Source: an uncultured Bacteroidota bacterium (GTDB taxonomy: Bacteria > Bacteroidota > Bacteroidia > Bacteroidales > JAAUTT01). From it: 64,000 nucleotides of DNA. Under the pieces are notes generated by a model. That model saw only the letters and a list, made by a program, of their open reading frames with translations. It searched no databases and had not been told where the DNA came from. The translations under genes were made by a program, and so were the position numbers. The stretch is from the NCBI GenBank assembly GCA_963846585.1, contig CAWJWO010000003.1, positions 140,505 through 204,504 of the forward strand, given 5' to 3'. Of the stretch, positions 29,286 to 63,305 are shown in pieces. Position 1 is the first letter of the stretch. Each line of letters starts with the position of its first letter.

Positions 29286-29286
29286 G

Positions 29287-29374: not shown

Positions 29375-29426
29375 ACATTTTCAATCTTTACAACTATATT
29401 AAATTTAATTGTCTCAGATTTTTAAT

Positions 29427-31204: not shown

Positions 31205-31206
31205 TA

Positions 31207-38182: not shown

Positions 38183-38250
38183 ATAATCTTTTTTAAATGG
38201 ATTATTATATAAACTTTCAGGAATAGGACGGATATGGGAGATTAAAAGTT

Positions 38251-38313
38251 ACAGGTTACAGGTTACAGGTTGCAGGTTACAGGTTACAGGTTGCAGGTTG
38301 CTGATTACAGGTT
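38251..38313. repeat. (RCAGGTT)x9 heptamer array abutting the anti-sigma stop codon
   Basis: ACAGGTT x3, GCAGGTT, ACAGGTT x2, GCAGGTT, GCTGATT, ACAGGTT. The TAA stop (38312-38314) overlaps the array by 2 nt. Confidence 0.95.
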
Positions 38314-39343
38314 ATTGGGTATTTTTTGATTGGTAAAAACCGATCAGAGGCGTTTCAAAAGATATTATTTTTCTTGATTTTCCCTTTTTATTTGAAAATT
38401 TCAAATAATTACCAGTTATATCGTTGATTTGTTGAATTTTAGATTTAACAAATGCCATTATTACTGAACTCGCATAATTGTTAATTATTGAATCAGGCTT
38501 TGACCTTGCCAATAAATTCATAGGGTCTATAGTATCTCTTGTAGAATTTATCAGTTTTATTGTCCTGGCGGGAATTATATTTAATTCCAATACATAAAGG
38601 GTCCTGTCAGGATTCAAATCATTATCGGACGATAATTTATCCACGCTATCTGTTAAGTTTGTTATTCCTGTATCTTTAACAGTCCGAATAATATTCCTTT
38701 TTGTATATTGCTGATATGCCTGACTGAATATGACTTTATTTGAGGTACTGTTTTTAGTTATGTTTTGGCTGATAGCTATATGTTTTTGATTCTTAGGAAC
38801 TGAAATTGATATTTTATTAATATGGTTAATATCACTTTTATTATATCGTGAAAAAACCGATGCTATCACCAGAAAAACAACTATTGATGCAGCTATTCCC
38901 AATAAGCCGGCAACCGACACTGAACCTATATTATGCCTCTTTAATCTTCCTTTATACTGGTACCGGATTGTATTATCGGGCTGAAACCTTGATTTTGTAA
39001 ACAATTCAAAATCTTTTGATTTAGAAGGATTGTTAATGATAAACTTTTTTAACTCATCTTTCTGGATATCAGAAAGGTCATCTTCAGTATAAGCAATGCA
39101 AAAGTCATTAAAATTATAACGGTTTACAGGTAATTGCAGTTTTTTACCTTTTTTCAGGTATTCTTTATCAGCAAATGAAATATTATCCTGATTTACAGGC
39201 TTAACTTCCATTTCTTCCAGTTGCTGCTTAATATCAGGATTTTCAGATAAAAACAATAGAAAGTATTCCATCTCCGGTGGACTAAGTTTGCCTTCGAGGT
39301 AATCTATGCAATATTGTTCGTAATTATTTCTATTTATGATCAT
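38312..39343 (-). CDS. Putative membrane-anchored anti-sigma factor
   Basis: 343 aa. The N-terminal YCIDYLEGKLSPPEMEYFLLFLSENPD segment is typical of Bacteroidota anti-sigma N-termini. Single TM (VAGLLGIAASIVVFLVIASVF). Sits downstream of an ECF sigma gene. Confidence 0.55.
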   Translation of the reverse strand: MIINRNNYEQYCIDYLEGKLSPPEMEYFLLFLSENPDIKQQLEEMEVKPVNQDNISFADKEYLKKGKKLQLPVNRYNFNDFCIAYTEDDLSDIQKDELKKFIINNPSKSKDFELFTKSRFQPDNTIRYQYKGRLKRHNIGSVSVAGLLGIAASIVVFLVIASVFSRYNKSDINHINKISISVPKNQKHIAISQNITKNSTSNKVIFSQAYQQYTKRNIIRTVKDTGITNLTDSVDKLSSDNDLNPDRTLYVLELNIIPARTIKLINSTRDTIDPMNLLARSKPDSIINNYASSVIMAFVKSKIQQINDITGNYLKFSNKKGKSRKIISFETPLIGFYQSKNTQ

Positions 39344-39360: not shown

Positions 39361-39575
39361 GAACCAGGAACCAAGACCTGAAAATAGTTGTTAGTTTTTA
39401 GTTGCTGGTTGTTAGTATATAGATTTTAGTGCATAGTGCTTAGTGCTTAGTATTTAACAACCTTTATAATTTATATAAACATTATAAACTTTAAACGAAT
39501 AAACAAATAAACGAATAAACTAAATAAGCACTATGCATCAAACACTATGCACTAAGCACTATGCACTATGCACTA
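39361..39575. repeat. Composite STR block between ECF sigma and anti-sigma genes: GAACCAGG at 39361-39378, TAGTTGY at 39385-39417, TAGTGCW at 39427-39452, (AAACGAAT/AAACAAAT) at 39493-39527, inverted GCACTAW at 39528-39575
   Basis: Read directly. The arrays at 39427-39452 and 39528-39575 are reverse complements of each other. Confidence 0.9.
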
Positions 39576-40058
39576 AATTACCGCCTCAGGACTCCCGATA
39601 TAATTCTTTAAAAAGAGCCTTGCCCTGTAAATGTATACTTTCACCTGAGATTCATTAAGTTCGGTTATTTTACCAATTTCTTCATATGAATATCCTTCAT
39701 AATCCCTGAGCAATACAACAGACTTTTGAATTTCAGGCAGCATTTCCAAACCCTTGTCGAGAACTTCACTAAGATCGGAATACTGATTGTTATGAATTAA
39801 AGCTTCGGGTTTAACCTCATTAAAGTTACCTTGTTTTTTTTCATGTCGTAACAAGTCAATAATCAGGTGATAAGCTGTAGTAAATAGGTATGATTTTGAT
39901 TTTTCGAATTGCACCTCATCAACCCTTATCCATAATTTTTCAAAGCTATCCTGCACAATATCAGATGATTTATCTTTATCCTTCAGATTTTTAAGGATAA
40001 ATCTGTAGAGATTATCAGAAAATAAATCAACACATGTATTGAATTCCCCGGTAGTCAT
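39573..40058 (-). CDS. ECF-type RNA polymerase sigma-70 family factor
   Basis: 161 aa. Region 2 (..DIVQDSFEKLW...YLFTTAYHLIIDLLR) and region 4 HTH (..VVLLRDYEGYSYEEIGKITELNESQVKVYIYRAR). Confidence 0.85.
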   Translation of the reverse strand: MTTGEFNTCVDLFSDNLYRFILKNLKDKDKSSDIVQDSFEKLWIRVDEVQFEKSKSYLFTTAYHLIIDLLRHEKKQGNFNEVKPEALIHNNQYSDLSEVLDKGLEMLPEIQKSVVLLRDYEGYSYEEIGKITELNESQVKVYIYRARLFLKNYIGSPEAVI

Positions 40059-40317: not shown

Positions 40318-40416
40318 TTATATAACAATATTGCTAGCTAACAACCTAACATCCTCAAAAATCTCTTTGGATTTTAAAACCCGATAATCAATATAATCTT
40401 GCTTTGTGCCAGGCAT
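40318..40416 (-). pseudogene. Truncated HEPN-domain toxin remnant (32 codons) coupled to the MNT gene
   Basis: I translated this by hand as MPGTKQDYIDYRVLKSKEIFEDVRLLASNIVI*. Its ATG overlaps the MNT stop (TAATG). The sequence resembles the first helix of HEPN partners of MNT nucleotidyltransferases, but stops after 32 aa where about 110-130 would be expected. Confidence 0.55.
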
Positions 40417-40736
40417 TATAAATAAATCCCCTCTCTTTTAATATTTTGATAAAGAGGAGTAATTCCATGTTTTTGCTCCCACTCACTTTTTGAAAATACA
40501 AATGTTGAAATAGGTTCTCCTATTTCAAGCTCAATATCAAAAAGTTCATCTCTATATTCTTTCTCTATCATTCGAGTAACATCGGTTTGATTAAGAAGTA
40601 TCAATATATCCCAATCTGAATCATTATGGGATTGTCCACGAGCATGTGAACCAAAAAGAATTATATCAGCAGAAGGATTTTTCTTCTTAATCCTTGCCTT
40701 AATCAATTGTGTGATATTAATTTCCTTTGTATTCAT
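40416..40736 (-). CDS. MNT-type nucleotidyltransferase-domain protein (antitoxin-like)
   Basis: Minimal NTase motif ILFGSHARG......SDWDILIL. The likely start is ATG at 40736 (MNTKEINITQ); the ORF track extends to 40778. Confidence 0.8.
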   Translation of the reverse strand: MNTKEINITQLIKARIKKKNPSADIILFGSHARGQSHNDSDWDILILLNQTDVTRMIEKEYRDELFDIELEIGEPISTFVFSKSEWEQKHGITPLYQNIKREGIYL

Positions 40737-40914
40737 ATAGCAAATATAACCTGAACTATGTAGATTCGCAAATAACATGATACTTCAAATTATAGCCCGG
40801 GTTTATTTCCCGTGCATAGCTTATGGGATTGTTTGGAGATCCCCGCACACCCGGGATTAAGTCCGGACTGCGTTCTATAGTATAGCTTATATAGAAAAAG
40901 AATTTAGTATCTTT

Positions 40915-41106
40915 GTGAAAAATATGCATATGAGCACTAAAACTGTAAAACCAACCAAGGAAAAAAGTTGGGCTCTTCCTGGAGCAAAGTTTACACATGT
41001 AGAATTTGTTGAGAAAATACGCAAAGCTGAAGAAGGCCCTTTCTACACGCTTGTAGAAATAAAAGAAATGCGTAAACAATGGAAGAATTCAAAGAAAGAC
41101 CTGTAG
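40915..41106 (+). CDS. Small putative antitoxin (positional call)
   Basis: 63-aa ORF (GTG at 40915; alternative ATGs at 40924 and 40930) immediately upstream of the ParE/RelE-like toxin gene, overlapping it by 28 nt. Confidence 0.45.
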   Translation: MKNMHMSTKTVKPTKEKSWALPGAKFTHVEFVEKIRKAEEGPFYTLVEIKEMRKQWKNSKKDL

Positions 41107-41414
41107 CGTATTCCAAACAATATGCAATAGATACACTTGAAATATATCTCTACGGTATAGAAACTTTTGGAGAATACCTAGCCAATAAATACGAAGATCT
41201 TATAGATAAAATTACATCCGAACTTTCTCAAAATTATTGGATGTACCCTGAATGTAGACATTTACCCACAAAAGGACATATATATCGGAATGTCATTCTT
41301 GAATCTCATTTGATTATTTACCGTGTAAAGACTGAAAGATTAGAAGTGCTGGGTGTTTTTCACTCCAAATCAAGTATTACCAGGATAAGAACAGCCCGCA
41401 ATCTTAAAATTTAA
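41079..41414 (+). CDS. ParE/RelE-family type II toxin
   Basis: 111 aa. Pattern ..YSKQYAIDTLEIYLY....G......YEDLIDKI...L...P..........YR......HLIIYRV....LEVLGVFH is typical of ParE-like toxins. Confidence 0.65.
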   Translation: MEEFKERPVAYSKQYAIDTLEIYLYGIETFGEYLANKYEDLIDKITSELSQNYWMYPECRHLPTKGHIYRNVILESHLIIYRVKTERLEVLGVFHSKSSITRIRTARNLKI

Positions 41415-41426
41415 TGCAGGATTTCT

Positions 41427-42191
41427 TTAACCCTCCCAATTTCTAAAAAACTTCTTGCTATAAGCCACACAAAATACCAGTATAATTGCTGAACTTATAA
41501 AAGGCTGCCAATGCATAGCCGATTCCTTTAAAATACATTGAGTTTCGTCAGGTAAATGAGTCGGGGAATATAACCCGGCTTTACCGAGCATAGAAATACC
41601 CACTGATAAAAAGGTAGTACCCAATGCCAAAATACCTGCTAATAAAGAAGTTTTGACCAAAATGCTATAAAAAATAGTAATAAACTGAATGACTATTAAA
41701 TACAAAAGTAAGACAAACACAATTTTAGTAATAACAATAATTGGAAATGATCCAAAAAAAACATGTGTGTACAATACTATCGTAATATATCCTGCAAACA
41801 TGGAAACAAAAAGGGAAATCAATTGAGATGAAAACTTGCTAAAAATAAACAGATTTCTTGAAACAGGTTTAACAAGCAAAAAAACAGCCGTTCCAGTTTC
41901 CTTTTCCTTTGCGACTGTCCCCATATTCAGCAGAATTAATATAAAAACACCCAGTTGAGAAATATTTTTTGTGTATTGCGCGATTGCATCTTTCCATGTA
42001 CTTTCAGGAACTTTTATATAGATATTTTGGTCTTTCATCGTGGAAGAAAGCATTGCCGGTAAATATTTTGCAAGAAGAGGAGAAATGATTCCAAAAAATA
42101 TAAATACCACAACTAAAATTATAAAACGCCCCGACCTTATTTGTTCAATCAACTCTTTATGGATAAGCACCCCAAATTGGTTTGTTTTCAT
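41427..42191 (-). CDS. ABC-2 type transporter permease
   Basis: 254 aa with 6 predicted TM segments. Starts 10 nt downstream of the ABC ATPase gene. Confidence 0.7.
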   Translation of the reverse strand: MKTNQFGVLIHKELIEQIRSGRFIILVVVFIFFGIISPLLAKYLPAMLSSTMKDQNIYIKVPESTWKDAIAQYTKNISQLGVFILILLNMGTVAKEKETGTAVFLLVKPVSRNLFIFSKFSSQLISLFVSMFAGYITIVLYTHVFFGSFPIIVITKIVFVLLLYLIVIQFITIFYSILVKTSLLAGILALGTTFLSVGISMLGKAGLYSPTHLPDETQCILKESAMHWQPFISSAIILVFCVAYSKKFFRNWEG

Positions 42192-42201
42192 TTGATTGGA
42201 A

Positions 42202-43125
42202 TTATTGTAACAACTTCACAAAAATATCTTCAAGGTTGGCATCTAAAATTTCAAACTTGCTGACAGAAAAATGTTTTACAGAAATAAATTCAAAAATTTC
42301 ATTCTTAATTTGCTCAATATTCAATGCATTTATCCGTAATTTATTATTTTCATCATTAGAAACAATATCCCAATTCAGGTCGCGTACAGAATTTATAAAT
42401 GATTGCATTGACTCACCGGTTTCAAACACCATTTCGATTTGCCGGGACGAATACTTCTTTTTCAACTCCTGCATGGATCCCTGAATCACCAATTTTCCTT
42501 TATCGATAATGGCAACTGCATCACATATTCTTTCAACATCAGAAAGAATATGTGTAGACATAAAAATGGTTATGTCCTTTTTAAGATGCATGATAAATTC
42601 CAATATTTTTTTTCTGCCCATTGGATCAAGTGCTGAAGTCGGTTCATCCAAAAACAATACATCAGGTTTGCCCATCAGTGCCTGTGCTATCCCCAACCGT
42701 TGGAGCATCCCCCCTGAATAAGCTGAGATTTTTTTATTTGCTGCTTCACTCAAACCTGCAATGTCTAATAATTCACCGGCCCTTTTTTTGCTTTCAACAT
42801 GGGAAAAACCAAATACCTTTCCAACAAATACCAATAGTTCCATGCCTCTCATAAAACCGTACATCCTGGGTTCCTGACCAAGATACCCGATTTTTTGCCT
42901 CAGCCGGATTGAGTTTGCTTTTACTTCCTCGCCGGCTACAGTGGCTTCACCACTAGTGGGTTTCATCAATCCTGTTAAAATCTTTATTGTAGTAGTTTTC
43001 CCTGAACCATTGGGACCCAGAAAACCAAATACAGTATTCTCCTTCACAGATAAGTCAAGGCCGCTTAAAGCAAACAAGGATTCACCCGCATACCGTTTTT
43101 TTATGCCACTACAGTTTATTATCAT
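42202..43125 (-). CDS. ABC transporter ATP-binding protein
   Basis: 307 aa. Walker A GPNGSGKTT, signature YSGGMLQR, Walker B VLFLDEPTSALD. Confidence 0.88.
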   Translation of the reverse strand: MIINCSGIKKRYAGESLFALSGLDLSVKENTVFGFLGPNGSGKTTTIKILTGLMKPTSGEATVAGEEVKANSIRLRQKIGYLGQEPRMYGFMRGMELLVFVGKVFGFSHVESKKRAGELLDIAGLSEAANKKISAYSGGMLQRLGIAQALMGKPDVLFLDEPTSALDPMGRKKILEFIMHLKKDITIFMSTHILSDVERICDAVAIIDKGKLVIQGSMQELKKKYSSRQIEMVFETGESMQSFINSVRDLNWDIVSNDENNKLRINALNIEQIKNEIFEFISVKHFSVSKFEILDANLEDIFVKLLQ

Positions 43126-43321
43126 CCGGGGTTTTGATTAGGACAATATAAAGGATAGACCCGATAAAGGATATACAGATAAATAAAGCCAGCCATAACC
43201 ATTTGCTCATCCATCTGAATTGTTTTCTTTTCAGCCAGTCGAAAAGGCAATACAGAATCAGTCCGAACTGTATAATAACTATAGGAATGATTGCCCACAA
43301 ATTCATCATCTCATTTTTCAT
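43109..43321 (-). CDS. PLD-nuclease-N-terminal-domain (PLDc_N) small membrane protein
   Basis: 70 aa with two TM helices and a conserved W...........G...Y layout (..KWLWLALFICISFIGSILYIVL). Overlaps the ABC ATPase start by 17 nt. Confidence 0.55.
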   Translation of the reverse strand: MKNEMMNLWAIIPIVIIQFGLILYCLFDWLKRKQFRWMSKWLWLALFICISFIGSILYIVLIKTPDDNKL

Positions 43322-43388
43322 ATTATTTTATATTATAAATCCTTATATTATCCTTCCGTTTATAAAGTTAAATTTTTCATAGGTTACA

Positions 43389-43607
43389 TTATTTTAATAT
43401 GAATTGCGATAACACTATAATTAATACAATACAAATAAATAATATCCAGGCATATGGACTTGTAAAATTTACAGTCCAACCCAATAGTGGATAAATTTTG
43501 GGAACAATTAACCCAGGGTCTTTACGATTATAGTAAAATGGGCCTTTCCAATTACCCGGGTCTTTCCTCATCGTATCAAGGATTTCTTTTTCAATTTTAA
43601 TTTTCAT
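43389..43607 (-). CDS. DUF5808-like small membrane protein
   Basis: 72 aa. The motif WKGPFYYNRKDPGLIVPK....GWTVNF resembles the DUF5808 signature. Confidence 0.55.
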   Translation of the reverse strand: MKIKIEKEILDTMRKDPGNWKGPFYYNRKDPGLIVPKIYPLLGWTVNFTSPYAWILFICIVLIIVLSQFILK

Positions 43608-44218
43608 AATAAGTGCGTGTTGTATATTGAAATCAGATACAGAGAAAACAACAAAGTCAGAATTATTGAAATTATAAATACGATGATAAAAAGTACAACT
43701 GATTTTGTTCCTTTCAGGTTTGCAGAAAGTCTGATCGCGTTAAACATAAGTGTGATCATCCATATTGTAGTTAATAAATTAAAAATCATCAAGGAGACAG
43801 CAATTATAACATTACCTGTTGTTAAATTAACCGGATTACCGTAATGAAGTCCTTTCCAAAGTATATATTTTGAAAATAGATTATAGGAATTTGAGAAGAA
43901 GCCTGTAAATGAAGCAAAGAAATATGGATATCGTGCCAGTGCCTGTGTACCTATGATATCGATAAAACGCACCGAAGATGCTGAAAAAATGATGGTCCCT
44001 AAATATAATATTATAGAAAAAATAAGCCAGTTCGCGAGACTTTGAATTATAAAATAGCAAAGTGGAAAGGAAGGACAAAGTTTTACAGAAATTAAATCAG
44101 GAAAATGTGTATGGCTTAAAAATCCTATACAAGCTGTGGCCAATATGATTAAAATTCCTGCAATAAGAGATTTTACACCTGCAATAAATTTAAACGGATT
44201 AAATAAAATTGAAATCAT
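43604..44218 (-). CDS. Multi-pass membrane protein (hypothetical; Yip1-like topology)
   Basis: 204 aa with about 5 TM segments. Its start overlaps the upstream gene and its stop overlaps the downstream gene, each as a 4-nt ATGA overlap. Confidence 0.5.
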   Translation of the reverse strand: MISILFNPFKFIAGVKSLIAGILIILATACIGFLSHTHFPDLISVKLCPSFPLCYFIIQSLANWLIFSIILYLGTIIFSASSVRFIDIIGTQALARYPYFFASFTGFFSNSYNLFSKYILWKGLHYGNPVNLTTGNVIIAVSLMIFNLLTTIWMITLMFNAIRLSANLKGTKSVVLFIIVFIISIILTLLFSLYLISIYNTHLL

Positions 44219-44496
44219 TGGTTATCTTTTTTAAGTTTAACAATTTTATATATAAGGTCATCCAACATATTACGCACAGTCGGATAACTTAATTTTAACT
44301 TTTGTGACATAATTTTTAAGCTGCCGCTGCACTGGATAAAATCCATAATAAACTCCTGTTCCTGCTGCTCCAGTTGCAGCAGGACAGGTAACTCATAGGT
44401 TCCGCTTATGGTGGTTTGACATGAATCACAAACGAGGCTTTGCACATTTAATGATGATTTGCAACTTGGACAAATCACAGGCAACTTCTTATCCAT
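44215..44496 (-). CDS. DUF2089-family protein (zinc ribbon + HTH)
   Basis: 93 aa. CPSC...(11)...CDSC zinc ribbon followed by an HTH-like segment, LKLSYPTVRNMLDDLI. First gene of the 6-gene operon. Confidence 0.65.
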   Translation of the reverse strand: MDKKLPVICPSCKSSLNVQSLVCDSCQTTISGTYELPVLLQLEQQEQEFIMDFIQCSGSLKIMSQKLKLSYPTVRNMLDDLIYKIVKLKKDNQ

Positions 44497-44654
44497 ATTT
44501 TCATTTTAATTTTCACAAATATAAACACGAAATTCATAAATACAAATAAATTATTAATATTATTTAATATACATTTAATTATATTTATATATTACTAAAT
44601 AAATTTGAAATCAGACCGGTTTTTATATCATTTCCAATAACTATCAAGAAACAA

Positions 44655-47097: not shown

Positions 47098-48684
47098 ATG
47101 ACTGCAATATCCGAAAATTTCTATCGCTTATATTCCGAAAAACCGTTGCTTGTAATCATAATGCTTGCTCTGATTGTACGTCTTGTGGCCGTTGTATTGT
47201 CGCAGGGATATGGTATGCATGACGATCATTTTTTAGTAATAGAAACTGCACAAAGCTGGGCAGACGGAACTGACTATGATTATTGGCTTCCACAAAATCA
47301 GATTAATCCTGTGCCTGGCGGACACAGTTTTTTTTATCCGGGAATACATTATTATTTATTTAAAGGATGCCAATTATTTGGAATTACCAATCCGGTTCAT
47401 AAAATGTACCTGGTTCGCCTGTTACACGCACTGCTTTCATTATTGACTGTAATTTATGGCTATAAAATAACACTCCGCTTATCTAACCAAAAAACCGCTA
47501 ACCTTGCAGGTTTATTTTTGGCACTTCTTTGGTTTATGCCTAATCTTAGTGTTAGAAACCTTGTCGAAGTAGTTTGCATTCCCTTTTTATTGATAAGTAC
47601 CTGGCAGCTATTGGTAGCTGATGAACGCAAATACAAGTATTTTAATTATTTAATTGCTGGTTTTGTTATCGGCGTGGCAGTTTCTATAAGATATCAAACC
47701 ATGCTTTGTGTTATTGGTTTTGGGCTTGCCTTACTAATATCACGTAAATGGAAAGAAGCACTTTTTTATGGATTAGGTTCTGTTATTTGTATTTCCCTCA
47801 CTCAGGGAGTTGTCGATATGGTAATATGGCACAGGCCTTTCAGTGAACTTCAGGAATATATCCGTTACAACATTGTAGCACGCCATGTATACGGAACCGA
47901 TAACAATCTTATGTACTTCGAAATAGTTCTGGGTTTTCTGATTCCTCCTGTAAGCTTATTTCTGTTTTATGGTTTCTTGCGAACCTGGAAAAAATACCTG
48001 CTGATATTCCTGCCAACTGCCATCTTTTTTCTCTTTCATACCTTTTTTTCAAATAAACAGGAACGCTTTATAATGTCAATAATTCCGTTTATTGTTATCC
48101 TGGGATTTATTGGATGGAATGAGTATGTTGCCGGTTCATCCTTTTGGAGCAAACGACCAAAAATATTAAAAGGATGTTTCGTTTTCTTCTGGATTGTTAA
48201 TATTCTGGCATTGATTATATTTTCAACTTCATACTCAAAACGTTCCAGAGTTGAATCCATGGTATATTTATCCCGGTATAAATCAACATTGAACAGTGTA
48301 TTGGTTGAAGACTCCAATCGTAACGATGCTACTTTCTTCCCATGCTTTTATATGGGAAAATGGATTGAATTATATAATTATGCGAAATATCCTCAAAAGG
48401 ATACTGCTAAAATTGATTCCATTATTAATTTCGGACGATTCCGTAAAAAAATTATTTCATTGAAGGTATTTTTACATAATTCAAATTTAATCCCTCCCGG
48501 ATATGTTCTTTTTGTTGATGAGAAGAACCTTAAACCAAGAACTGAATATGTAAAAACTATATTCCCTCATTTACAATACGAAACAACCATTGAGCCCAGT
48601 TTTCTGGATAAATTGATGCAAAAATTAAACCCGATTAATAAAAATTATCCGGTGTTCATATATCGGACTAATGTGAAGAATTGA
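47098..48684 (+). CDS. Integral-membrane GT-C type glycosyl/mannosyltransferase (ArnT/PMT/Alg9-like)
   Basis: About 528 aa from ATG at 47098 (MTAISENFY). Many TM segments and an early acidic loop motif (GYGMHDDHF). The ORF-track start at 46990 overlaps ribD. Confidence 0.6.
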   Translation: MTAISENFYRLYSEKPLLVIIMLALIVRLVAVVLSQGYGMHDDHFLVIETAQSWADGTDYDYWLPQNQINPVPGGHSFFYPGIHYYLFKGCQLFGITNPVHKMYLVRLLHALLSLLTVIYGYKITLRLSNQKTANLAGLFLALLWFMPNLSVRNLVEVVCIPFLLISTWQLLVADERKYKYFNYLIAGFVIGVAVSIRYQTMLCVIGFGLALLISRKWKEALFYGLGSVICISLTQGVVDMVIWHRPFSELQEYIRYNIVARHVYGTDNNLMYFEIVLGFLIPPVSLFLFYGFLRTWKKYLLIFLPTAIFFLFHTFFSNKQERFIMSIIPFIVILGFIGWNEYVAGSSFWSKRPKILKGCFVFFWIVNILALIIFSTSYSKRSRVESMVYLSRYKSTLNSVLVEDSNRNDATFFPCFYMGKWIELYNYAKYPQKDTAKIDSIINFGRFRKKIISLKVFLHNSNLIPPGYVLFVDEKNLKPRTEYVKTIFPHLQYETTIEPSFLDKLMQKLNPINKNYPVFIYRTNVKN

Positions 48685-48920
48685 AGATGTGCAGATGTGT
48701 AAATTTACAGATGGTGAATAATTACTTATTACTAATGACAAATGAAAAGAGAGCCAGGAACCAAGAACCAGGAACCAAGACTAGGAACATGTAACTTGTA
48801 ACCTGTAACCTGCAACCAGTAATATATTAATACATAAACCTTATAGACCTTATCAACCTTATCAACCTTATCAACCTTATAAATTGAATAAACGAAAATA
48901 CTTTATAAACTTCATAAACG
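48684..48920. repeat. Composite STR block: (CAGATGTG-like) at 48684-48716, (CCAGGAACCAAGA) at 48750-48787, (TGTAACC/TGCAACC) at 48788-48823, (AACCTTATC)x~4.5 at 48837-48881, (CATAAAC-like) at 48901-48920
   Basis: Read directly downstream of the GT-C gene. Confidence 0.9.
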
Positions 48921-48934: not shown

Positions 48935-51280
48935 ATGAAAACTATCCTTCTATCTTTATTGACTGTTTTATTTATTGGATCAGTAAATGGCCAAAATGCT
49001 AAAAAATTTTTTAAAACAGGTGACGAGTTTTATAAAGCAGGAAATTTCAAGGATGCTATTAATCAATTTACCAATGCAATAAGCGTAAATCCGGAATATA
49101 AGGAAGCTTATTTCATGAGAGGCAAAGCTTATATAATTTTGAAAAATTTCGATAAAGCTGTGGATGATTTAAATCGTGCAATAATTTTCGAACCACAGAA
49201 TGAAGAGATATTTTATAACCTTGGGGTAACTTATAACAATCTTAATAAATATAAGGAAGCTCTTGATGATTTAAATCATGCAACATTCCTGAATAAAAAA
49301 TATATTCCGGCTTACCAGGAAAAAATAATCAGTTTGATGGCCCTGGATCAAAATTACAGTGCTTTAAAAGTTAGTGACACTGCTCTTGCTCTTGAAGGAA
49401 GTGCCCGTAATTATTACTTATACGGATTGGTAACACAAAATCTGAATTCTGCGCAAAAAGCAGAATGGGCCTTTACAAAAGCAATAAAGGAAGATAAAAA
49501 ATATATCGATGCATATGTTGCATTGGCCATATTGCAGGCGAATTATCTGAATAAGCCGGAAGAAGCTATGGTGCATTGTAATGAAGCACTTAAAATGGAA
49601 CCAAATTCGATATCAGCCCTTATTGCCCGAAGCAAAGTATATATAAAAATACTTGATTACCGTAATGCCATTGACGACTTATCAAAGGCAATAGTTATTA
49701 ATCCAGACAACGAAGATTTATTCCTGCTTCGTGGAATATATTATCAGGAATTTAAGCAGCATCAGAATGCAATAGACGATTTTAATAAAGTGATTGATCT
49801 GGATCCTAAAAATGCCGAGGCCCTATACAAACGTGCCAATTCCTATGAAGAAATATCTGATTTTAAAGGAGCTATAAAGGATTATCAAACACTGGTCCAA
49901 CTATCCGAATATGATGTAAAAGCAAAAAAATTATTAAAACAATCAAAGGATAGGCTATATGAACTTAAAAGAGAATCTAACAACCCTGTAATAACAATAC
50001 AGGATCCGGCTCCAAAAGACAAAAAAATCATTGAAATACCTAATAATAAGCATGTTGTCCAAATAAAGGGTTATGTAACAGATGAAAGTGATCTAAGCTA
50101 TATAAGGATTAATAATAAAAATATAACCTATAAAAATATTGACGGACAGAACCAATTTATAGCCGGTTTAAATATTGACAGCCTTGAATCAATATATATA
50201 TCTGCCTCTGACGTTTATAATAATGTTGAAAAGATGAATTTTATTATAAAAAGAACTGAAACTAATCCGCCTAAAGTAACAATATTAGCACCTTTGGCTT
50301 CCGATAACGGTGAAATTTATCTTGACAACAATGATGCCGTACTTTATGTGGAAGGGAAAATAACTGACGAAAGTCCTATAAAATCAATAATAATCGATGA
50401 TGTTTCTGCAAGTTTTGCAATTGATGAATTAAATCCAAAGTTTTCCGCCAATATAAATATTTCCAACAAAAATAAATTCACTGTAACAGCAACTGATATT
50501 TATGGAAACGGAATACCGGTCACTTTCAGGATTAACCGTGAAAATGCCTCTTTATTCGGATCAAACCCTATGGGTAAGACCTGGGTGATTTTTATCGAAA
50601 ATTCCAATTACCGTACATTTGCAAGCCTTGAAGGGCCAACTAAAGATGTTACCCTTATGAAAACTGCACTGGCTAAATACCAGGTTAATAACTTTGTTCA
50701 CAAAAAAGACCTTACAAAGGAACAAATGGAAAAATTCTTTTCAATTGAGTTAAGAGACCTGGTTAAAAGTAACCGCGTAAATACTTTATTGATATGGTAT
50801 GCCGGCCATGGTAAGTTTATTAACGAAACAGGCTATTGGATTCCAATTGATGCTAACCGCGACGATGAATTCACATATTTTAATATTAACTTTTTGAGGG
50901 CATCGTTACAATCCTATTCAACAGTTACACATAAACTTGTAATTTCAGATGCCTGCGAGTCGGGACCGACATTTTTCCAGGCTATGCGTTCCTCCTTAAA
51001 GGAACGAAGTTGCGATGACTGGCAGGCAACCCGGCTTAAATCGTCACAGGTATATTCCTCAGCCGGATATGAACTTGCCCAAGACTATTCTAAATTTACG
51101 AAAGCAATTGCCAATTTATTAGCTAGTAATCCGAATGCTTGTATTCCAATAGAAAGCATAGTTTTAAAGGTAAATTCATCATTACCCCAGGATAGCCAGC
51201 AAAAACCAAAATTTGGCAAAATCGCGGGCCTTGCTGATGAAGACGGAACTTTTTTCTTTATTGCCAGGGAAAGAAGATAG
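48935..51280 (+). CDS. Secreted TPR-repeat / Ig-like / caspase (peptidase C14) domain protein
   Basis: 781 aa. Signal peptide, about 8 TPR units (aa 20-340), beta-sandwich-like middle region, and a C-terminal caspase His/Cys dyad (LLIWYAGHGKF ... KLVISDACESGPTF). Confidence 0.8.
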   Translation: MKTILLSLLTVLFIGSVNGQNAKKFFKTGDEFYKAGNFKDAINQFTNAISVNPEYKEAYFMRGKAYIILKNFDKAVDDLNRAIIFEPQNEEIFYNLGVTYNNLNKYKEALDDLNHATFLNKKYIPAYQEKIISLMALDQNYSALKVSDTALALEGSARNYYLYGLVTQNLNSAQKAEWAFTKAIKEDKKYIDAYVALAILQANYLNKPEEAMVHCNEALKMEPNSISALIARSKVYIKILDYRNAIDDLSKAIVINPDNEDLFLLRGIYYQEFKQHQNAIDDFNKVIDLDPKNAEALYKRANSYEEISDFKGAIKDYQTLVQLSEYDVKAKKLLKQSKDRLYELKRESNNPVITIQDPAPKDKKIIEIPNNKHVVQIKGYVTDESDLSYIRINNKNITYKNIDGQNQFIAGLNIDSLESIYISASDVYNNVEKMNFIIKRTETNPPKVTILAPLASDNGEIYLDNNDAVLYVEGKITDESPIKSIIIDDVSASFAIDELNPKFSANINISNKNKFTVTATDIYGNGIPVTFRINRENASLFGSNPMGKTWVIFIENSNYRTFASLEGPTKDVTLMKTALAKYQVNNFVHKKDLTKEQMEKFFSIELRDLVKSNRVNTLLIWYAGHGKFINETGYWIPIDANRDDEFTYFNINFLRASLQSYSTVTHKLVISDACESGPTFFQAMRSSLKERSCDDWQATRLKSSQVYSSAGYELAQDYSKFTKAIANLLASNPNACIPIESIVLKVNSSLPQDSQQKPKFGKIAGLADEDGTFFFIARERR

Positions 51281-51455
51281 TGCATAGTGAATAGTGCATA
51301 GTGCATAGTGCATAGTGCATAGTAATTTGTGCTTAGTATATACAATATAACATTTTAACTGATGGCATTTATTGCTTTGGCCCCAGGCCTCTGGCCCCTG
51401 ATCCCTGGCCCCTGGTCCCTGATCCCTGGCCCCTGGTCCCTAGCCCCTAGCCCCC
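51277..51455. repeat. (ATAGTGC)x~8 at 51277-51338 and a C-tract array (CCCTGRYC-like)x~10 at 51379-51455
   Basis: Read directly. The first array supplies the TAG stop of the caspase gene (51278-51280). Confidence 0.95.
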
Positions 51456-51458
51456 GAC

Positions 51459-51502
51459 ACTCTGACGAGCATAACGGAGAAGTTGGCTTTTTCTTATTGA
51501 CA
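51459..51502 (-). repeat. Truncated inverted copy of the ~57-bp module
   Basis: The reverse complement reads TGTCAATAAGAAAAAGCCAACTTCTCCGTTATGCTCGTCAGAGTG. It matches the module up to GTTATGCTCGTCAGA and then runs into the C-tract array. Confidence 0.7.
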
Positions 51503-54500
51503 CTAATTAAGGCTTGTAGTAAAACTTTTATTATAAGTATAGTATTTACTTTTTTATCTGTTACTTCAAAATCCCAGTCATATTTTTTTGATAATTATTC
51601 ACTGGAAGACGGGTTAGCACACTCTAAGATTTATTCTATTATTCAGGACAGGAATCATCTTATTTGGATGGGTACTCCAGGCGGAGTAACAACCTACGAC
51701 GGGGTTAAATTTCAAAAATATACATCCGGAAATGGTTTGGCAGAAAGCGGAGTATGGTCTATTTATCAGGATTCAAAAGGTTTATTGTGGTTTGGTCATC
51801 TCGATGGCAGTATATCGCGCTGGAATGGCAGTAAATTCGAAAATATTCCGGGAGGCATTATATTTAAAGAAGTAGTGTATTCATTTTGTGAAAATGAAAA
51901 AGGTGAACTTTGGATTACTTCCTATGGATCAGGAGCTGCTCTGATTTCAAACCCCACTGCTCAGCTGACTAAACTAAAATATGAAAATTATAAAGGAAAA
52001 CGGCTTGGAGACCGTGTTTATGGATGTTTCAGGTTAAGTGACAATAAAAATTATTTTATAACCGATGCAGGAATAAAGGTATTCAATGACAATAATAAAA
52101 CTTTTGAAAATTTTTTTATTGACGGAATGCCTAGATTTTTCCCTATCACTACTCTTTTTGAGGACAAAAATAAGAATTTGTGGTTTGGAACAATGCATGG
52201 AGGACTTTACAGGTATAATAGAAAATCAGGAAAGTTTAAAATATTTGATATCCGTGATGGATTATCTTCTAATTTTATTACCTGTATTGCTGAAGACCGT
52301 TATGGGAAAATATGGGTTGGAACTGAAGCTGGTATTACAAAAATATACGGGGATAATTTAACAGTTTATAACCAAACCAATGGTTTCCTTGGCGGTATGG
52401 TAATTTGCATAACAATTGACGCCGAAGATAATATTCTAATTGGCACCTTTGAAAATGGGTTATCTATATATAAAGGGGAATTTCTTATCTTTTCACAACC
52501 TTGTAACCTTCCTGATCAACAAATTTTCAGTATTTTGGAAGATTCTAATAAAAAAATATGGTTTGGTACCGATGATGGTATATTTTTATATGATCCAAGC
52601 CATAAGAAGAACACTCATTTTGAATGGATTAAAGGAGCTATTGACAAACCTGCAAAGATAAGGTTTATAAAGGAAGACAGGCAAAAGAATATATGGATAG
52701 GGACTTATAACAACGGACTTTTTGAATATTTTTCAAAAACAGGAAAGCTTGAATCAAATTTCGATATTTTTTCAACTCTTCCATCCACCAGTAAACAAAT
52801 TACGGCTCTTGATACAGATAATAACGGATCACTTTGGATTGGAGCAAATGATCGTCTTTTAAACTATAATATATCTACAGGACATATACATGGTTATTCA
52901 CAGTATGATGGACTTTCAGGTAATATTATTACTGCTGTACATACCGATGTGAAAAATATTAAATATATTGGATCACAAGATCGCGGAATTACAGTATTTA
53001 AAGACACATTAACACCCCAATCATTAAAGTTTCCCTTGCTTGGCAATACAACGCCAACATGCATTACTTCCGATAATTCAGGCAATATTTGGATAGGCAC
53101 TGAAGGTCAGGGTGTAATTTGCTTTTCAAATGGAAAAATTAAAAAAAGGTTTCAGGAAAAAGATGGCCTGATTTCTGACCTGATAAGTTTTATTGCTCTT
53201 GATAAAACAGGCAATATTTATGCAGGTACTAATCAGGGCCTGAATGTAATAAATTCAAAAACAAATCTCATTGCCACTTTTTCTAAACGAAACGGATTTA
53301 TTGGAATAGAAGCAAAAAATAATGCCGTTTTTAAAGATTCAAAAGGATTTTTGTGGTTTGGCACAGCAAAAGGAGCAATACGTTTCGATCCACAAATAAC
53401 TCAGTACAAACCTGGTGAACCCTTTACTCATATAAGGCGATTCAGGGTAAATTATGAAGACCGCCCTTTAAAAAATGGTACAATACTATCTTATAACGAG
53501 AATTTTATCATTTTTGATTATATAAGTGTTTGCCTGAAAGACCCTGAAGCTGTACTTTACCAGGTAATGCTTGAAGGAGCCGACAAAGACTGGCATCCGG
53601 TTACCAGACAAACCATGGTAACATATTCGGCACTTCCTCCAAATCACTACATATTTAAACTACGTGCCAAAAATAGTTCTGGAGCATGGAACACTAACCC
53701 CGTTTGTTTCGAATTTCAGATACTTTCAGCTTTTTATAAAACCTGGTGGTTTATTAGCAGTTGTATAGGTATTATTTTAATTGCCATTTATACATATATT
53801 AAAAGAAGAGAAAGAAACCATATTAAAGAAAAACAGATTCTCGAATTTAGAATTGAACAGCGTACAAAAGAAGTTTCTCATATCAATTATGAACTTTCAT
53901 TAAAAAACAAGGATATAACTGACAGTATTTTATATGCAAGCAGAATACAAAATGCTTTGCTTCCCCCAAAACTGCCATTTGATAATTCATTCGTGCTTTT
54001 TTTGCCAAAAGATATTGTCAGCGGTGATTTCTTCTGGTTTACCATTAACGGGGATAAAGAGTGGCTTGCAGCAGTTGATTGTACAGGACACGGAGTACCG
54101 GGAGCATTTATGTCCATAATTGGCCACAATTTATTAAATAAAATTGTAAATGAGCTCGGAATTGTAAAACCATCCGAAATATTAAATCATTTGAATACAG
54201 AAATTTCTAATACCCTGCATCAATATCATCATGACGAAGAAATTCATGACGGAATGGACATATCCCTGATAAGTTATGATAACGTTACACATATTATTGA
54301 ATATTCAGGTGCATTTAACCCCTTGTGGATAATCCGTAAAAATGAAATTATAGAGACAAAAGCCAACCGCTATGCAATAGGTATTGCCCCGGGACTTGAA
54401 AAAGATTTTGTTAATAATGTTATTCCATTACAAACAGGAGATACACTTTACCTGTTTACTGACGGATATGCCGATCAGTTTGGAGGAACAGCCGGGAAAA

Positions 54501-54658: not shown

Positions 54659-54662
54659 ATAA

Positions 54663-54693
54663 GGGGTTAGGGATCAGGGACTAGGGATTAGTG
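54663..54693. repeat. G-tract array GGGGTTA GGGATCA GGGACTA GGGATTA
   Basis: Read directly, 5 nt after the PP2C sensor stop codon. Confidence 0.9.
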
Positions 54694-55304: not shown

Positions 55305-55532
55305 TGGGGGGGGGTAGGGATTAGTGGCCAGGGGTTAGTGGTTAATTGCAGGTTACAGGATAAAAGTGATGAAGTGATGAAGTGATGAGGTGATGAAGTG
55401 ATTAAGTTTATAAGATTTCCCATAAACTTTATAAACCTCATAAACCAATTAGTAATTTGTAATCAGTAATTTGTAATTTGTAATTTGTCATCTGCACATC
55501 TGCACATCTGCACATTTTCACATCTGCACATT
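55305..55532. repeat. Composite STR block: G-tract words at 55305-55341, GCAGGTT at 55346-55360, (GTGATGAA)x~5 at 55365-55406, (CATAAAC-like) at 55421-55446, (AGTAATTTGTAAT-like) at 55448-55488, (CATCTGCA)x~5 at 55489-55532
   Basis: Read directly. The block fills the whole spacer between trxA and the LOG-family gene. Confidence 0.9.
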
Positions 55533-55537
55533 ATTTT

Positions 55538-55855
55538 TTACAGTAAAGCTTCCAGTTTAGAAGAAATTACATTTTTTGGGACTGCCCCAACCTGTTTGTC
55601 AACTATTTTTCCATTTTTAAAAAATAAAATAGTAGGGATGTTACGAATACCAAATTTGGCAGACACTTCAGGGTTACTGTCTACATCAAGTTTAGCAACT
55701 TTGGCACGTCCTTCATATTCCTGCCCGATTTCTTTTACCAAAGGTCCAACCATACGGCAAGGGCCACACCATTCTGCCCAAAAATCTACCAGAACAGGCA
55801 CTTCCGAATTAATAACAACTTCATCAAAGTTGCCATCAGTTACTTCAATAGTCAT
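55538..55855 (-). CDS. trxA: Thioredoxin
   Basis: 105 aa with the canonical WAEWCGPCR active site. Confidence 0.92.
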   Translation of the reverse strand: MTIEVTDGNFDEVVINSEVPVLVDFWAEWCGPCRMVGPLVKEIGQEYEGRAKVAKLDVDSNPEVSAKFGIRNIPTILFFKNGKIVDKQVGAVPKNVISSKLEALL

Positions 55856-55938
55856 ATATTAATTTTTAAGTTATTATTTATTCATTAATAGTTATTGTCT
55901 GTAAAATAACCAAAAATAATCATTTTTTTTACTAACAA

Positions 55939-59849: not shown

Positions 59850-61214
59850 ATGAAAATTCATATCATTGCTATTGGAGGTAGTGCGATGCATAATCTTGCA
59901 ATAGCTTTGCATGAAATGGGATATGACGTTACCGGCTCCGATGATGAAATATTTGAACCCTCATTTTCCCGATTGAAAAAACATGGTTTGTTGCCTGAAC
60001 AATTAGGTTGGTTTCCGGGCAAAATTACAAGTGATATCGATGCAGTCATTTTAGGAATGCATGCCCTGGAGAATAACCCTGAACTAATAAAAGCCAGGCA
60101 GTTGTGGCTTAAAATTTATTCCTACCCTGAGTATCTCTTCAACCAGACAATGGATAAGAAGAGGGTGGTTATAGCGGGAAGCCATGGTAAGACTACCATT
60201 ACATCGATGATTATGCATGTGCTCAAACATTGCGAAAGGGAATTTGATTACATGGTAGGGGCAAGTATTGAGGGATTCGAAACCATGGTAAGAATTTCTG
60301 ATTCATCTCCGGTTGCAATTTTTGAAGGTGATGAATACTTATCTTCCGCCCTGGACCGACGTCCTAAATTTCATTTATACAGGCCGCATATAGCTTTAAT
60401 TTCAGGTATTGCATGGGACCATATAAATGTTTTCCCGGATTTTGACAGTTATAAACGGCAATTCAGGGAATTCATTGAATACATTGAGCCAAACGGAACC
60501 TTATATTACTTTGATGGCGACCCGGTGTTAAAGGACATTGTCGAAAGGAGCATAAACCCCATTGATATAATTCCTTATAAGGAACACCTTCATATGATCC
60601 GTGACCATCATAGTTACCTTCTTACACAATCAGGATCATATAAGTTTCACTTATTGGGCAAACATAATTTACTAAATGTTGAAGGAGCCAGGTTAATCTG
60701 CAAACAACTGGAAGTTACGGATGTAGAGTTTTATAAAGCCATTTCGACTTTCCAGGGAGCTTCAAAACGGCTTCAGGTAATTCATTCAACTGATAATTCA
60801 TCTGTATTTATGGATTTTGCCCATGCTCCTTCAAAAGTTAAAGCTACAGTGGAGGCATTAAAGACCCATTACCCTGAACGTAAACTGATAGTATGCCTTG
60901 AATTACATACTTATAGCAGTCTGAATAAAGATTTTATCGGTGAATATCATGGTACTCTGACGGGTGTTGAGCATGCTGCAATATTTTATAACCCTGAAAC
61001 CGTAAAACATAAACGTTTGGAAAAAATATCCTCAAAAGACATTCAAAAAGCATTTGACAGGGATAATCTTGATGTAATAACGGAAACTTCTGAATTGGAA
61101 GCATGGATAAAAAAATCAGCTTTTCAGGATTCGAACCTTTTATTTATGAGTTCAGGAAATTTTGGAGGGCTGGATGTTCATGGTATATTAAAGGGACTAG
61201 GGGCTAGGGACTAG
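59850..61214 (+). CDS. mpl: Mur-ligase family UDP-N-acetylmuramate:tripeptide ligase (Mpl-like)
   Basis: N-terminus IIAIGGSAMHNLAIAL, P-loop GSHGKTTITSM. ATG at 59850 (the ORF track starts at TTG 59844). The last 6 codons and the TAG stop lie in the GGGRCTA repeat array. Confidence 0.75.
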   Translation: MKIHIIAIGGSAMHNLAIALHEMGYDVTGSDDEIFEPSFSRLKKHGLLPEQLGWFPGKITSDIDAVILGMHALENNPELIKARQLWLKIYSYPEYLFNQTMDKKRVVIAGSHGKTTITSMIMHVLKHCEREFDYMVGASIEGFETMVRISDSSPVAIFEGDEYLSSALDRRPKFHLYRPHIALISGIAWDHINVFPDFDSYKRQFREFIEYIEPNGTLYYFDGDPVLKDIVERSINPIDIIPYKEHLHMIRDHHSYLLTQSGSYKFHLLGKHNLLNVEGARLICKQLEVTDVEFYKAISTFQGASKRLQVIHSTDNSSVFMDFAHAPSKVKATVEALKTHYPERKLIVCLELHTYSSLNKDFIGEYHGTLTGVEHAAIFYNPETVKHKRLEKISSKDIQKAFDRDNLDVITETSELEAWIKKSAFQDSNLLFMSSGNFGGLDVHGILKGLGARD

Positions 61215-61323
61215 GGGCTAGGGGCTAGGGACTAGGGACTAGGGGCTAGGGACCAGGGACTAGGGACTAGGGACCAGGGACTAGTTGTTGGTTGCAGGTT
61301 ACAGGTTGCAGGTTGCAGGTTTT
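61193..61323. repeat. (GGGRCYA)x13 heptamer array at 61193-61284, followed by (GCAGGTT/ACAGGTT)x~5 at 61285-61323
   Basis: The 13 heptamers were counted by hand. The array begins inside the last codons of mpl. Confidence 0.95.
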
Positions 61324-61557: not shown

Positions 61558-61632
61558 GGCCTGTTCGTCTAACGGTTAGGACGCAAGATTTTCATTCTTG
61601 AAATAGGGGTTCGATTCCCCTACGGGCTACCA
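61558..61632 (+). tRNA. tRNA-Glu (anticodon UUC), CCA encoded
   Basis: Hand-folded cloverleaf. Acceptor GGCCTGT/ACGGGCT, D arm GTCT-AACGGTTA-GGAC, anticodon arm CAAGA-TTTTCAT-TCTTG (TTC at positions 34-36), variable loop AAAT, T arm AGGGG-TTCGATT-CCCCT, discriminator A plus CCA. The layout parallels E. coli tRNA-Glu. Confidence 0.85.
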
Positions 61633-61645
61633 TCATAGCATAAGG

Positions 61646-61678
61646 ATTGGAATCAAACATTCCAATTCTTCTCGTTTT
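61646..61678 (+). terminator. Rho-independent terminator after tRNA-Glu
   Basis: Perfect 8-bp stem ATTGGAAT / ATTCCAAT with loop CAAAC, followed by TCTTCTCGTTTT. Confidence 0.6.
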
Positions 61679-61740
61679 AAGGGGGTTACGAAGTTATTGG
61701 AAAAAGGATTTTAATCAAATATTTCGCTGTTTCAAGCTTT

Positions 61741-61762
61741 TTGTATGACAATTGTATGACAA
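61741..61762 (+). repeat. Tandem 11-bp direct repeat TTGTATGACAA x2 just upstream of the integrase gene
   Basis: Read directly: ttgtatgacaa ttgtatgacaa, ending 18 nt before the integrase ATG. May be an arm-type or operator site. Confidence 0.5.
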
Positions 61763-61780
61763 TTTAAAAACAAAAAGACT

Positions 61781-63218: not shown

Positions 63219-63305
63219 AATGTTTTCACTAAATGAGGTATTTAGATACTATTAATATTCAATACAAATGATTATATAAATCAAATACTTAACATTGAAT
63301 AATAT

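Follow-up and report, generated by a model that had tools for sequence, protein, structure and literature searches.

The window analysed here, a 64,000-nucleotide stretch of DNA from an uncultured Bacteroidota bacterium (contig CAWJWO010000003.1), has almost all of its sizeable intergenic regions filled with direct tandem repeats of 7-, 8- or 9-base units. These arrays abut or overlap the stop codons of genes, at times coding the last codons together with the stop, and they are oriented with the G-richer strand pointing away from the nearest gene. With somewhat more confidence than doubt, we interpret them as slippage-generated arrays of the type described as short tandemly repeated repetitive (STRR) sequences or long simple sequence repeats (LSSR). 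Some of them would be borne by a dispersed module, and the loss of spacer DNA would have docked the arrays to stop codons.

The window is Bacteroidota chromosome with a G+C content of ~33%. Its genes include those for type IX secretion PorP/SprF, a CHU_C adhesin of 4386 amino acids (aa), ECF sigma factors, Mpl, DnaE and malate dehydrogenase (mdh). In a scan of GTDB species the best Mpl match is just 58% identical, and no closer species-level reference was found. Tandem Repeats Finder (TRF) recovers 47–51 strong arrays in the 64 kb, with a period of 7–9 and 2.6–13 copies, belonging to about a dozen words that include AACCAGG, TAGTGCA, TAGTTGT, GGGRCTA, AACCTGY, TGCAGATG, AAGTGATG and ATAAACCTT. 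Non-coding DNA makes up 9.2% of the window, yet it holds 91% of the array bases, and 28% of it is covered by arrays. The array density is 28.8 nt/kb, compared with 2.9 in 80 other Bacteroidota loci, 5.5 in a sister species and 0 in a farther relative (L088); the window lineage is thus about tenfold above the level usual for Bacteroidota. The sister species is represented by one syntenic contig of 192 kb (loci L085, L097 and L219), with an Mpl 84% identical to that of the window (72% for L088), and it contains five times fewer array bases. In unit type, non-coding excess, excess over relatives and whole-unit copy-number polymorphism, the arrays agree with STRR/LSSR sequences. An assembly artefact is ruled out, since independent assemblies from other samples are 99.7–100% identical and differ almost solely within the arrays. 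An Rfam scan of the window gave no RNA family match other than a tRNA.

The arrays are concentrated at stop ends. A strong array lies at most 10 nt away from 12 of 28 stop ends and from 1 of 26 start ends (Fisher p=0.001). Among array-bearing intergenic regions, the same distance is found at 13/18 stop ends and 1/18 start ends. Random placement of the arrays within their own intergenic regions yields 4.8±1.7 stop ends, and none of 20,000 shuffles (0/20,000) reaches the observed 13. An earlier note on this DNA had proposed an enrichment next to stops, to be judged against shuffled spacers, and this comparison upholds it; its description of arrays that abut or overlap stops, and sometimes code the last codons and the stop, is likewise accurate at every site it named. 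Upstream of starts, the arrays of the window lie 30–90 nt away.

Docking is most precise for words that contain TAG. Seven of the 13 TAG stops form the TAG of TAGTTGT, TAGTTGC or TAGTGCA, compared with 2/232 in the 80 other Bacteroidota loci (p=6e-9) and 0/9 in the sister species. In 6/7 of these cases the stop is the first TAG of the word, where one third would be expected (binomial p≈0.007). The arrays do not appear to have raised TAG usage, an idea that finds no support in the stop codon frequencies (TAG 29% here, 23% in the sister species, 20–21% in controls); the abnormal feature of TAG stops here is only the context that follows them. The sites of the TAG words are listed below.

51277–51323, + strand: TAGTGCA array of 6.7 copies; its first TAG (51278–51280) is the stop of the TPR-caspase gene (48935–51280).
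39525–39576, − strand: TAGTGCA-family array, in phase from the TAG stop (39573–39575) of the ECF sigma gene (39573–40058).
39426–39451, + strand: inverted TAGTGCA array in the same intergenic region as 39525–39576, pointing away from the start of the 343-aa gene.
1464–1495, − strand: TAGTGCA array coding the last five codons (IVHSA) and the TAG stop (1478–1480) of a cation/proton antiporter-like gene (1478–2665).
5571–5589, + strand: TAGTGCA array 6 nt past the stop of the Omp85-like gene (5562–5564), in phase with a tandem in-frame TAG at 5565.
1283–1307, + strand: TAGTTGT array 2 nt past the TAG stop of the ABC ATPase gene, followed by the junction GGATAAAAGT (1308–1317).

The coordinates are in line with the earlier claim that the caspase, ECF sigma and antiporter genes all stop at the TAG of TAGTGCA and that IVHSA is array-coded. 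The sense array reported after the Omp85-like gene is also present, but at a spacing of 6 nt and not 7. The other words occupy the following sites.

29429–29498, − strand: AACCAGG-family array of 10 copies, abutting the mdh TAG stop (29497–29499).
3746–3769, + strand: AACCAGG array 9 nt past the stop of the MBL-fold gene.
31206–31226, + strand: AACCAGG array 1–2 nt past the FNR-like stop, with purine-rich AGAGGAC and GATTTGA arrays after it.
31397–31423, − strand: AACCAGG array 9 nt past the stop of an 85-aa open reading frame (ORF), inverted relative to 31206–31226.
23617–23639, − strand: AACCAGG array 28 nt past the YfiR stop, followed by the junction AGATAAAAGT.
48750–48780, + strand: AACCAGG array 65 nt past the GT22 (GT-C fold) stop.
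491–517, − strand: AACCAGG array preceding the ABC ATPase start by 34 nt; it occupies the non-coding strand and points away from the nearest gene.
39361–39378, + strand: AACCAGG array preceding the start of the 343-aa gene (a − strand gene) by 18 nt, on the non-coding strand, pointing outward.
61192–61284, + strand: GGGRCTA array with 13 G3–4 tracts, coding GLGARD and the TAG stop of Mpl (59850–61214).
38248–38314, − strand: AACCTGY array of 9.6 copies, in register with the TAA that ends the 343-aa gene (putative anti-sigma; 38312–39343).
331–353, + strand: TTACTGA-like array coding the TatC tail LLITND and its TGA stop.
48682–48715, + strand: TGCAGATG 8-mer array; the GT22 TGA stop falls within its first unit, the variant TGAAGATG.
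55489–55531, − strand: TGCAGATG 8-mer array of 5.4 copies, 6 nt past the thioredoxin (Trx) stop (55538–55540).
54662–54690, + strand: GGGRYTA array 4 nt past the stop of the SpoIIE-phosphatase gene.
51378–51454, − strand: GGGGCYA/GGGAYCA array with 10 G-tracts, preceding the SpoIIE gene and lying on its non-coding strand.
5671–5695, − strand: TAATMWCT 8-mer array, in register with the TAA that ends the OmpA/TPR gene (5693–7873).

Six sense AACCAGG arrays and two antisense ones (491 and 39361) had been recorded before, and all eight positions are correct, as are the abutment of the mdh TAG stop by its array and the coding of GLGARD plus TAG of Mpl (61193–61214) within the GGGRCTA array. The array after the GT-C gene stands 65 nt from the stop. 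A third antisense array, TAGTGCA at 39426–39451, was missing from that record. The AACCTGY array does overlap the TAA at 38312–38314; the gene labelled 'anti-sigma' is without a family match. In addition, array-coded or phased stops are found at TatC, OmpA, GT22 and, in the flank, UvrA, and further docked genes are Trx and SpoIIE, together with UvrA, DnaB and a second LOG gene outside the window.

The SpoIIE upstream array also affects annotation. Gene callers misread 51378–51454 as an N-terminal extension of SpoIIE, and public SpoIIE gene calls are ~45 codons too long, running through the stop-free strand of the GGGGCYA array (51362–51496). At the Trx locus, the 125-aa ORF on the + strand (55485–55862), which has its start in the CATCTGCA array, is spurious, the true gene being thioredoxin on the − strand (55538–55855).

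Comparison with relatives indicates that the arrays abut native stop positions instead of replacing C-termini, because the sister proteins terminate at the same position. In that array-poor species, where these arrays are absent, length and C-terminus are unchanged for 12 proteins: caspase (781 aa), sigma (161 aa), RecX, lipid-A deacylase, Omp85, DnaE, Trx, SpoIIE, FNR, the 85-aa ORF, mdh and ABC. Each of the three species has a caspase orthologue of 781 aa with a fixed stop position (TAG here, TGA in L085, TAA in L088), and the ABC stop likewise varies in identity among TAG, TGA and TAA with its position unchanged. The sister sigma orthologue carries TAG at the same codon without a TAGTGCA array, and TAG is the ancestral stop at sigma, RecX and lipid-A deacylase. 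The sister orthologue of the 343-aa gene has an equally long tail, a TAG stop and no array. At the mdh 3' site, the sister species has TAA and no array and L220 a different array family, while L220 bears an orthologous degenerate AACCAGG array at the FNR-like site. Trx likewise has a conserved C-terminus, and relatives have 64–77 nt of intergenic DNA at the orthologous place, with no arrays in it. The replacement of native stops, for which a check of orthologue C-termini had been suggested, is therefore largely contradicted, with 12 genes keeping their ends without arrays and exceptions at Mpl, the antiporter and TatC.

Truly array-derived tails are limited to these three proteins, all poorly conserved at this end. 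Mpl homologues carry an unrelated tail of 4–6 aa, and the Mpl tail itself differs by strain (GLGARD or GLGTRG before the stop), with one strain having +7 nt in the array. Distant antiporter homologues end in 10–15 unrelated aa; the tail is LVHSE in L098, where it is array-coded too, and QREVKIT in the sister species. The sister TatC keeps its native TAA, which is followed by (GATGACT)x2. The same array sites recur in related species with differing copy numbers, and some are graded in length: after the ABC gene, orthologous sites hold a 2-unit TAGTTGT proto-array in the sister species, 3.6 units here and ~10 in L098. The 3' spacers of relatives range over 0–20 nt. Particularly, the ancestral SpoIIE/LOG spacer is 0–4 nt (108 nt with arrays here) and the RecQ/DnaB spacer 19 nt.

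These observations bear on the reading first given to the arrays, as elements of 3' untranslated regions (3'-UTRs) selected as terminators, RNA stabilisers or backup stops. Such elements would sit tight against stops, as the arrays do. In addition, tandem in-frame or three-frame stops trail many genes, and for arrays within 15 nt of a stop the sense strand is richer in stop triplets in 12 cases and the antisense strand in 3, with 5 ties. TAGTGCA arrays beside stops in unrelated metagenome loci are sense in 13 cases and antisense in 3; the underlying (TAGTGCA)3 scan matched very diverse genomes of 29–66% GC and was used for this orientation count only, as any heptamer would match in a collection of that size. 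However, the same families occur upstream of starts and in divergent regions, AACCAGG and TGCAGATG contain no stop triplets, orthologues share their protein ends without arrays, and the arrays are much longer than a backup stop needs. Single arrays are moreover structureless, folding no better than shuffled sequence (z −0.05 to +0.84; +0.62 for 51277–51323 and +0.84 for 38248–38314). Long stems form only from inverted array pairs, such as 39426–39576, where 39426–39451 pairs with 39525–39576 in a hairpin of −56.7 kcal/mol (z=−8.6). Selection as 3'-UTR elements is highly improbable to our mind: stop abutment, coded tails and an orientation bias stand, but 3'-UTR specificity, terminator structure and stop replacement do not. 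A role as backup stops or at transcription-unit boundaries is possible.

Identity with intrinsic terminators is rejected, the arrays being unstructured and hairpin-plus-T sites occurring at the level expected from shuffling (1/27 3' flanks). The idea that arrays substitute for lost terminators is also unsupported, with such sites at 1/27 flanks here, 2/26 in the sister species and 82/619 in controls, a difference that is not significant.

The orientation of the arrays follows the nearest gene. The strand reading outward, away from that gene, is G-richer in 49 arrays and G-poorer in 16 (p=5e-5). Stop ends taken alone give 32:10 and start ends 17:6, while sequence beyond the window gives 13:2. 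All eight AACCAGG arrays read outward, including both of the antisense cases that had earlier counted as counter-examples. The same families are also found in divergent (5'-5') intergenic regions and upstream of starts, and because the arrays are inverted there, the bias is outward from the nearest gene and not sense to transcription. The bias that had been described is hence real, but it places the G-richer strand outward at both gene ends. Arrays of period 7–9 behave in the same way elsewhere, with 40:11 in the 80 unrelated Bacteroidota loci (p=6e-5) and 32:12 in diverse metagenome loci. What is new here is that the polarity extends to many unrelated words, to independent Bacteroidota and to other metagenomic bacteria. 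The background skew of Bacteroidota flanks is +0.10 on the 5' side, which accounts for the polarity there, and +0.018 on the 3' side, which does not. Under replication skew, and equally under transcription-coupled deamination, the sign would be expected to differ between the two ends of a gene. A replication-strand orientation of the ATAAACCTT 9-mers, which lie mostly on the + strand, is rejected, because these 9-mers conform to the outward rule and the remaining families are mixed.

The arrays change in length between strains. About 10 between-strain indels fall in arrays, mostly ±7, ±8 or 21 nt, and elsewhere only four events of 1–2 nt occur. Assemblies more than 99.6% identical differ by +7, −21, −7, −8 and +7 nt inside arrays; the mdh array, for example, shows +7 nt in L001 and −21 nt in L003, although the samples are otherwise 99.9% identical. 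Arrays therefore gain and lose whole units between strains. These changes spare reading frames, the last Mpl residues excepted. As copy number varies between strains and an acquired islet (61558–64000, see below) is without arrays, no gene depends on a particular array.

Samples also differ in two other respects. Against 21 kb from another sample (L001), the window shows 18 substitutions; 15 of them cluster in the ECF sigma gene, at 39655–40049, which suggests a recombined or diversifying allele. In one sample (L002, 1–5320), the flank of DUF3857 genes is swapped for a region with A+T-rich repeats of 30–45-nt period and a 1016-aa ORF, which indicates a strain-level rearrangement or insertion.

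Many arrays belong to a dispersed composite module instead of arising independently at each site, because loci share unit-variant orders and non-repeat junctions. The order TAGTTGC-TGGTTGT-TAGTTGT (TAGTTGCTGGTTGTTAG) is common to 3 intergenic regions, and the order GGAACCAAGAC is found in 4–5. The clearest junction is the following.

55358–55367 (+), 484–493 (−), 1308–1317 (+), 5665–5674 (+) and 23603–23612 (−, 1 mismatch): non-repeat junction GGATAAAAGT, sitting between 7-mer arrays and GATGAAGT 8-mers.

Its four exact copies are all intergenic, and every one lies between 7-mers and GATGAAGT 8-mers. A small non-autonomous mobile or recombining composite element with a preference for gene boundaries as insertion sites (such as TA or TAG), followed by internal expansion, would produce such shared junctions and unit-variant orders. 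It would also fit the different families borne by the orthologous mdh site across species, the sharp density contrast between sister species, and an unrelated 55-nt element that is likewise flush with three gene boundaries and outward. Reading the intergenic regions, however, reveals neither terminal inverted repeats nor target-site duplications nor a constant length, and there is no transposase nearby within 84 kb. Moreover, the composition varies by site, the acquired islet is uncolonised, and several arrays are orthologous and length-graded, which suggests growth in situ. We regard this explanation as quite improbable.

The ~55-nt element itself (TGTCAGYAAGAAAACACCAAT...GTTAYGCTCRTCA) is dispersed and non-tandem. 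Its copies, 81–87% identical, lie at 29286–29341 (+), 36911–36965 (+) and 51461–51503 (−). It directly follows the TMEM260 and AhpC stops and abuts the probable TTG start of SpoIIE, reading outward each time. The first copy precedes the sole convincing hairpin-plus-T terminator of the window (29349–29375).

Slippage followed by docking through spacer loss would connect these features as follows. Ancestral 3' spacers are tiny, and with nothing essential between stop and array the spacer could be deleted. A unit bearing TAG, TAA or TGA would then slide into register with the stop via a 3-base microhomology, leaving the protein unchanged, while arrays free of stop triplets, such as AACCAGG, would halt 2–9 nt past the native stop. 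Registration by microhomology fits both the use of the first TAG as stop (6/7) and the gap of 2–9 nt at which AACCAGG arrays begin. Where the tail is dispensable (Mpl, antiporter, TatC), the frame could enter the array and be capped within three units, because a 7-base unit with a stop triplet presents a stop in all three frames. Promoters and leaders would hold arrays 30–90 nt off start codons. The polarity would be in part a tolerance filter, stop triplets being welcome after genes, and G and start triplets unwelcome in leaders.

Several points weigh against slippage and docking as a full account. The docking-by-deletion step is one that we infer, and strain comparisons show no docking intermediate. 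The account gives no route by which the module would spread between loci, and it is drawn from ~80 kb of genome in total. The p-values of the outward polarity are optimistic because adjacent arrays are not independent. The polarity stays at 19:5 where stop-triplet counts are equal on both strands and at 40:13 where 3 nt or more separate the array from a retained native stop, and the AACCAGG word, neither strand of which contains stop or start triplets, nevertheless reads outward in all 8 arrays. A stop-triplet filter as the sole cause of polarity is ruled out by these two subsets, and a filter on coding potential alone is likewise insufficient, because polarity persists in both.

Polarity of this kind is what functional polar boundary elements would show, in which outward G-rich RNA on a C-rich template would form an R-loop or G-quadruplex (G4) that pauses or stops the polymerase, inward C-rich, G-poor RNA would load Rho, and genes would be insulated in a lineage where hairpin terminators are scarce. 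The outward excess at both stop and start ends, its recurrence in the Bacteroidota and metagenome loci, its persistence after the stop-triplet control and the near-zero 3'-flank background skew in other Bacteroidota are consistent with such elements. So are the 10–13 G3–4 tracts in GGGRCTA arrays, the scarcity of hairpin terminators (1/27 flanks) and the report that Xanthomonas transcripts start or stop more often at G4-capable than at control repeats (Rehm et al., PMC4692102). On the other hand, most words, among them TAGTTGT, TAGTGCA and AACCAGG, are not G4-capable. In addition, the sister species and the acquired islet have the same or similar gene ends free of arrays, copy number drifts between strains, and hairpins are equally scarce in the array-poor sister (1/27 vs 2/26). 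We consider boundary elements unlikely, though polarity speaks for them. A broader proposition, that outward polarity is a general unrecognised rule of bacterial intergenic tandem repeats and could mark or insulate transcription-unit boundaries, seems to us decidedly unlikely; if true, G-rich nascent RNA would stall outgoing polymerases and C-rich RNA would recruit Rho to incoming ones.

Two regions of the window are poor in arrays. A block of small genes at 40416–44654 (nucleotidyltransferase, ParE toxin, an ABC-2 transporter pair and DUF2089) has intergenic regions without 7–9-nt arrays, unlike the remaining window, and may be more recently acquired DNA. The second region, at 61558–64000 and ~1.3 kb beyond (L093 8597), contains a tRNA followed by a truncated tyrosine-integrase gene, a 181-aa ORF, and RloB and AAA_21 genes. 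It is flanked by copies of TTGTATGACAA, two at 61741–61764 and one past the window end, and the truncated integrase gene gave no catalytic domain match. This stretch is probably a small integrated defence islet, without tandem arrays. Together, the tRNA-linked islet and the toxin-antitoxin regions have an array density of 3.1 nt/kb.

Other repeats of the window lie in or beside coding sequence. Eight 267-bp (89-aa) units are repeated in tandem at 11377–13505 within the giant gene for the 4386-aa CHU_C/type IX secretion surface protein (8820–21980), after which come PorP/SprF and OmpA-TPR genes. A G9 run (C9 on the gene strand) at 55305–55313 lies 2 nt upstream of the start of a LOG-family gene (55303, − strand) and differs by 2 nt in another assembly; it is possibly a phase-variable homopolymer or a sequencing error.

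The arrays matter in several respects. Docking and the orientation rule span a dozen unrelated words in an uncultured Bacteroidota, beyond the few heptamers known. Repeat-coded C-terminal tails and stops of real proteins (Mpl, antiporter, TatC) differ between strains, gene callers overextend frames through the stop-free strand of arrays, as in a 1098-aa SpoIIE call, and assemblies can break or be mis-sized at arrays. Moreover, the cause of the polarity is a testable question on how intergenic DNA is shaped.

Several known repeat systems can be set beside the arrays. Contingency repeats lie in the 5' coding regions or promoter spacers of surface genes and switch expression by slippage. Here, in contrast, housekeeping genes of all classes are concerned and the arrays lie mostly past the stop; identity with phase-variation loci is ruled out, the arrays being past stops or 30–90 nt before starts with frames intact. 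REP and BIME sequences (repetitive extragenic palindromes and bacterial interspersed mosaic elements) of Enterobacteria and Pseudomonas are dispersed intergenic repeats found just past stops, often between convergent genes, with orientation rules and in clusters. REPs are imperfect palindromes mobilised by RAYT transposases (REP-associated tyrosine transposases). The arrays described here are instead non-palindromic direct repeats of 7–9 nt, no RAYT is seen, and identity with REP/BIME is ruled out by the absence of a 20–40-nt palindromic unit. STRR sequences of heterocystous cyanobacteria are short tandem repeats of the same sort as LSSR, and the word GGGGA(C/T)T of Nostoc is that of STRR1. 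Mrázek's LSSR have units of 5–11 nt, 7 being the commonest, are enriched in non-coding DNA of scattered lineages and are attributed to polymerase slippage. Unlike in the STRR and LSSR accounts, a composite grammar and in-phase stop docking are found here. In the literature examined, no Bacteroidota genome of comparable array density is described.

The closest precedents date from 2015. Rehm et al. (PMC4692102) described G-rich heptamers, GGGAATC in Xanthomonas and GGGGA(C/T)T in Nostoc PCC 7120, with the G-rich strand coding after stops and non-coding just upstream of starts. Like the arrays here, these repeats are intergenic heptamers of variable copy number, some overlap the stop codon, and the nearer ORF is on the 5' side whatever its orientation (PMC4692102). 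They are absent from plasmids, as the window arrays are absent from the acquired islet (PMC4692102). Unlike them, the window has a dozen families in a different phylum, mostly not G4-capable, with periods of 7, 8 and 9, in recurring order with conserved junctions and without a four-unit preference. G3–4 tracts are confined here to the GGGRCTA/GGGGCYA family, at 3–13 per array, and most families have none. MacGregor (2015, PMC4679880) described TAACTGA direct repeats in marine Beggiatoaceae, some Cyanobacteria and five Bacteroidetes, together with long mixed heptamer arrays in Gramella, Aequorivita and Elizabethkingia. TAACTGA heptamers present stops in all three frames, which limits the overlap with ORF ends to ~18 nt, and 13 sets overlap upstream stop codons (PMC4679880). 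An array-coded tail reported there, LITDN-, matches in peptide the TatC tail found here, LLITND before its stop (PMC4679880). The Beggiatoa repeats are mainly forward and 1 nt upstream of starts, suggesting translational control (PMC4679880); here, in contrast, TTACTGA-like words are minor and docking at stop ends is dominant. Stop docking and polarity were thus already described in Xanthomonas, Nostoc and Beggiatoa, and the window is an unusually rich further case.

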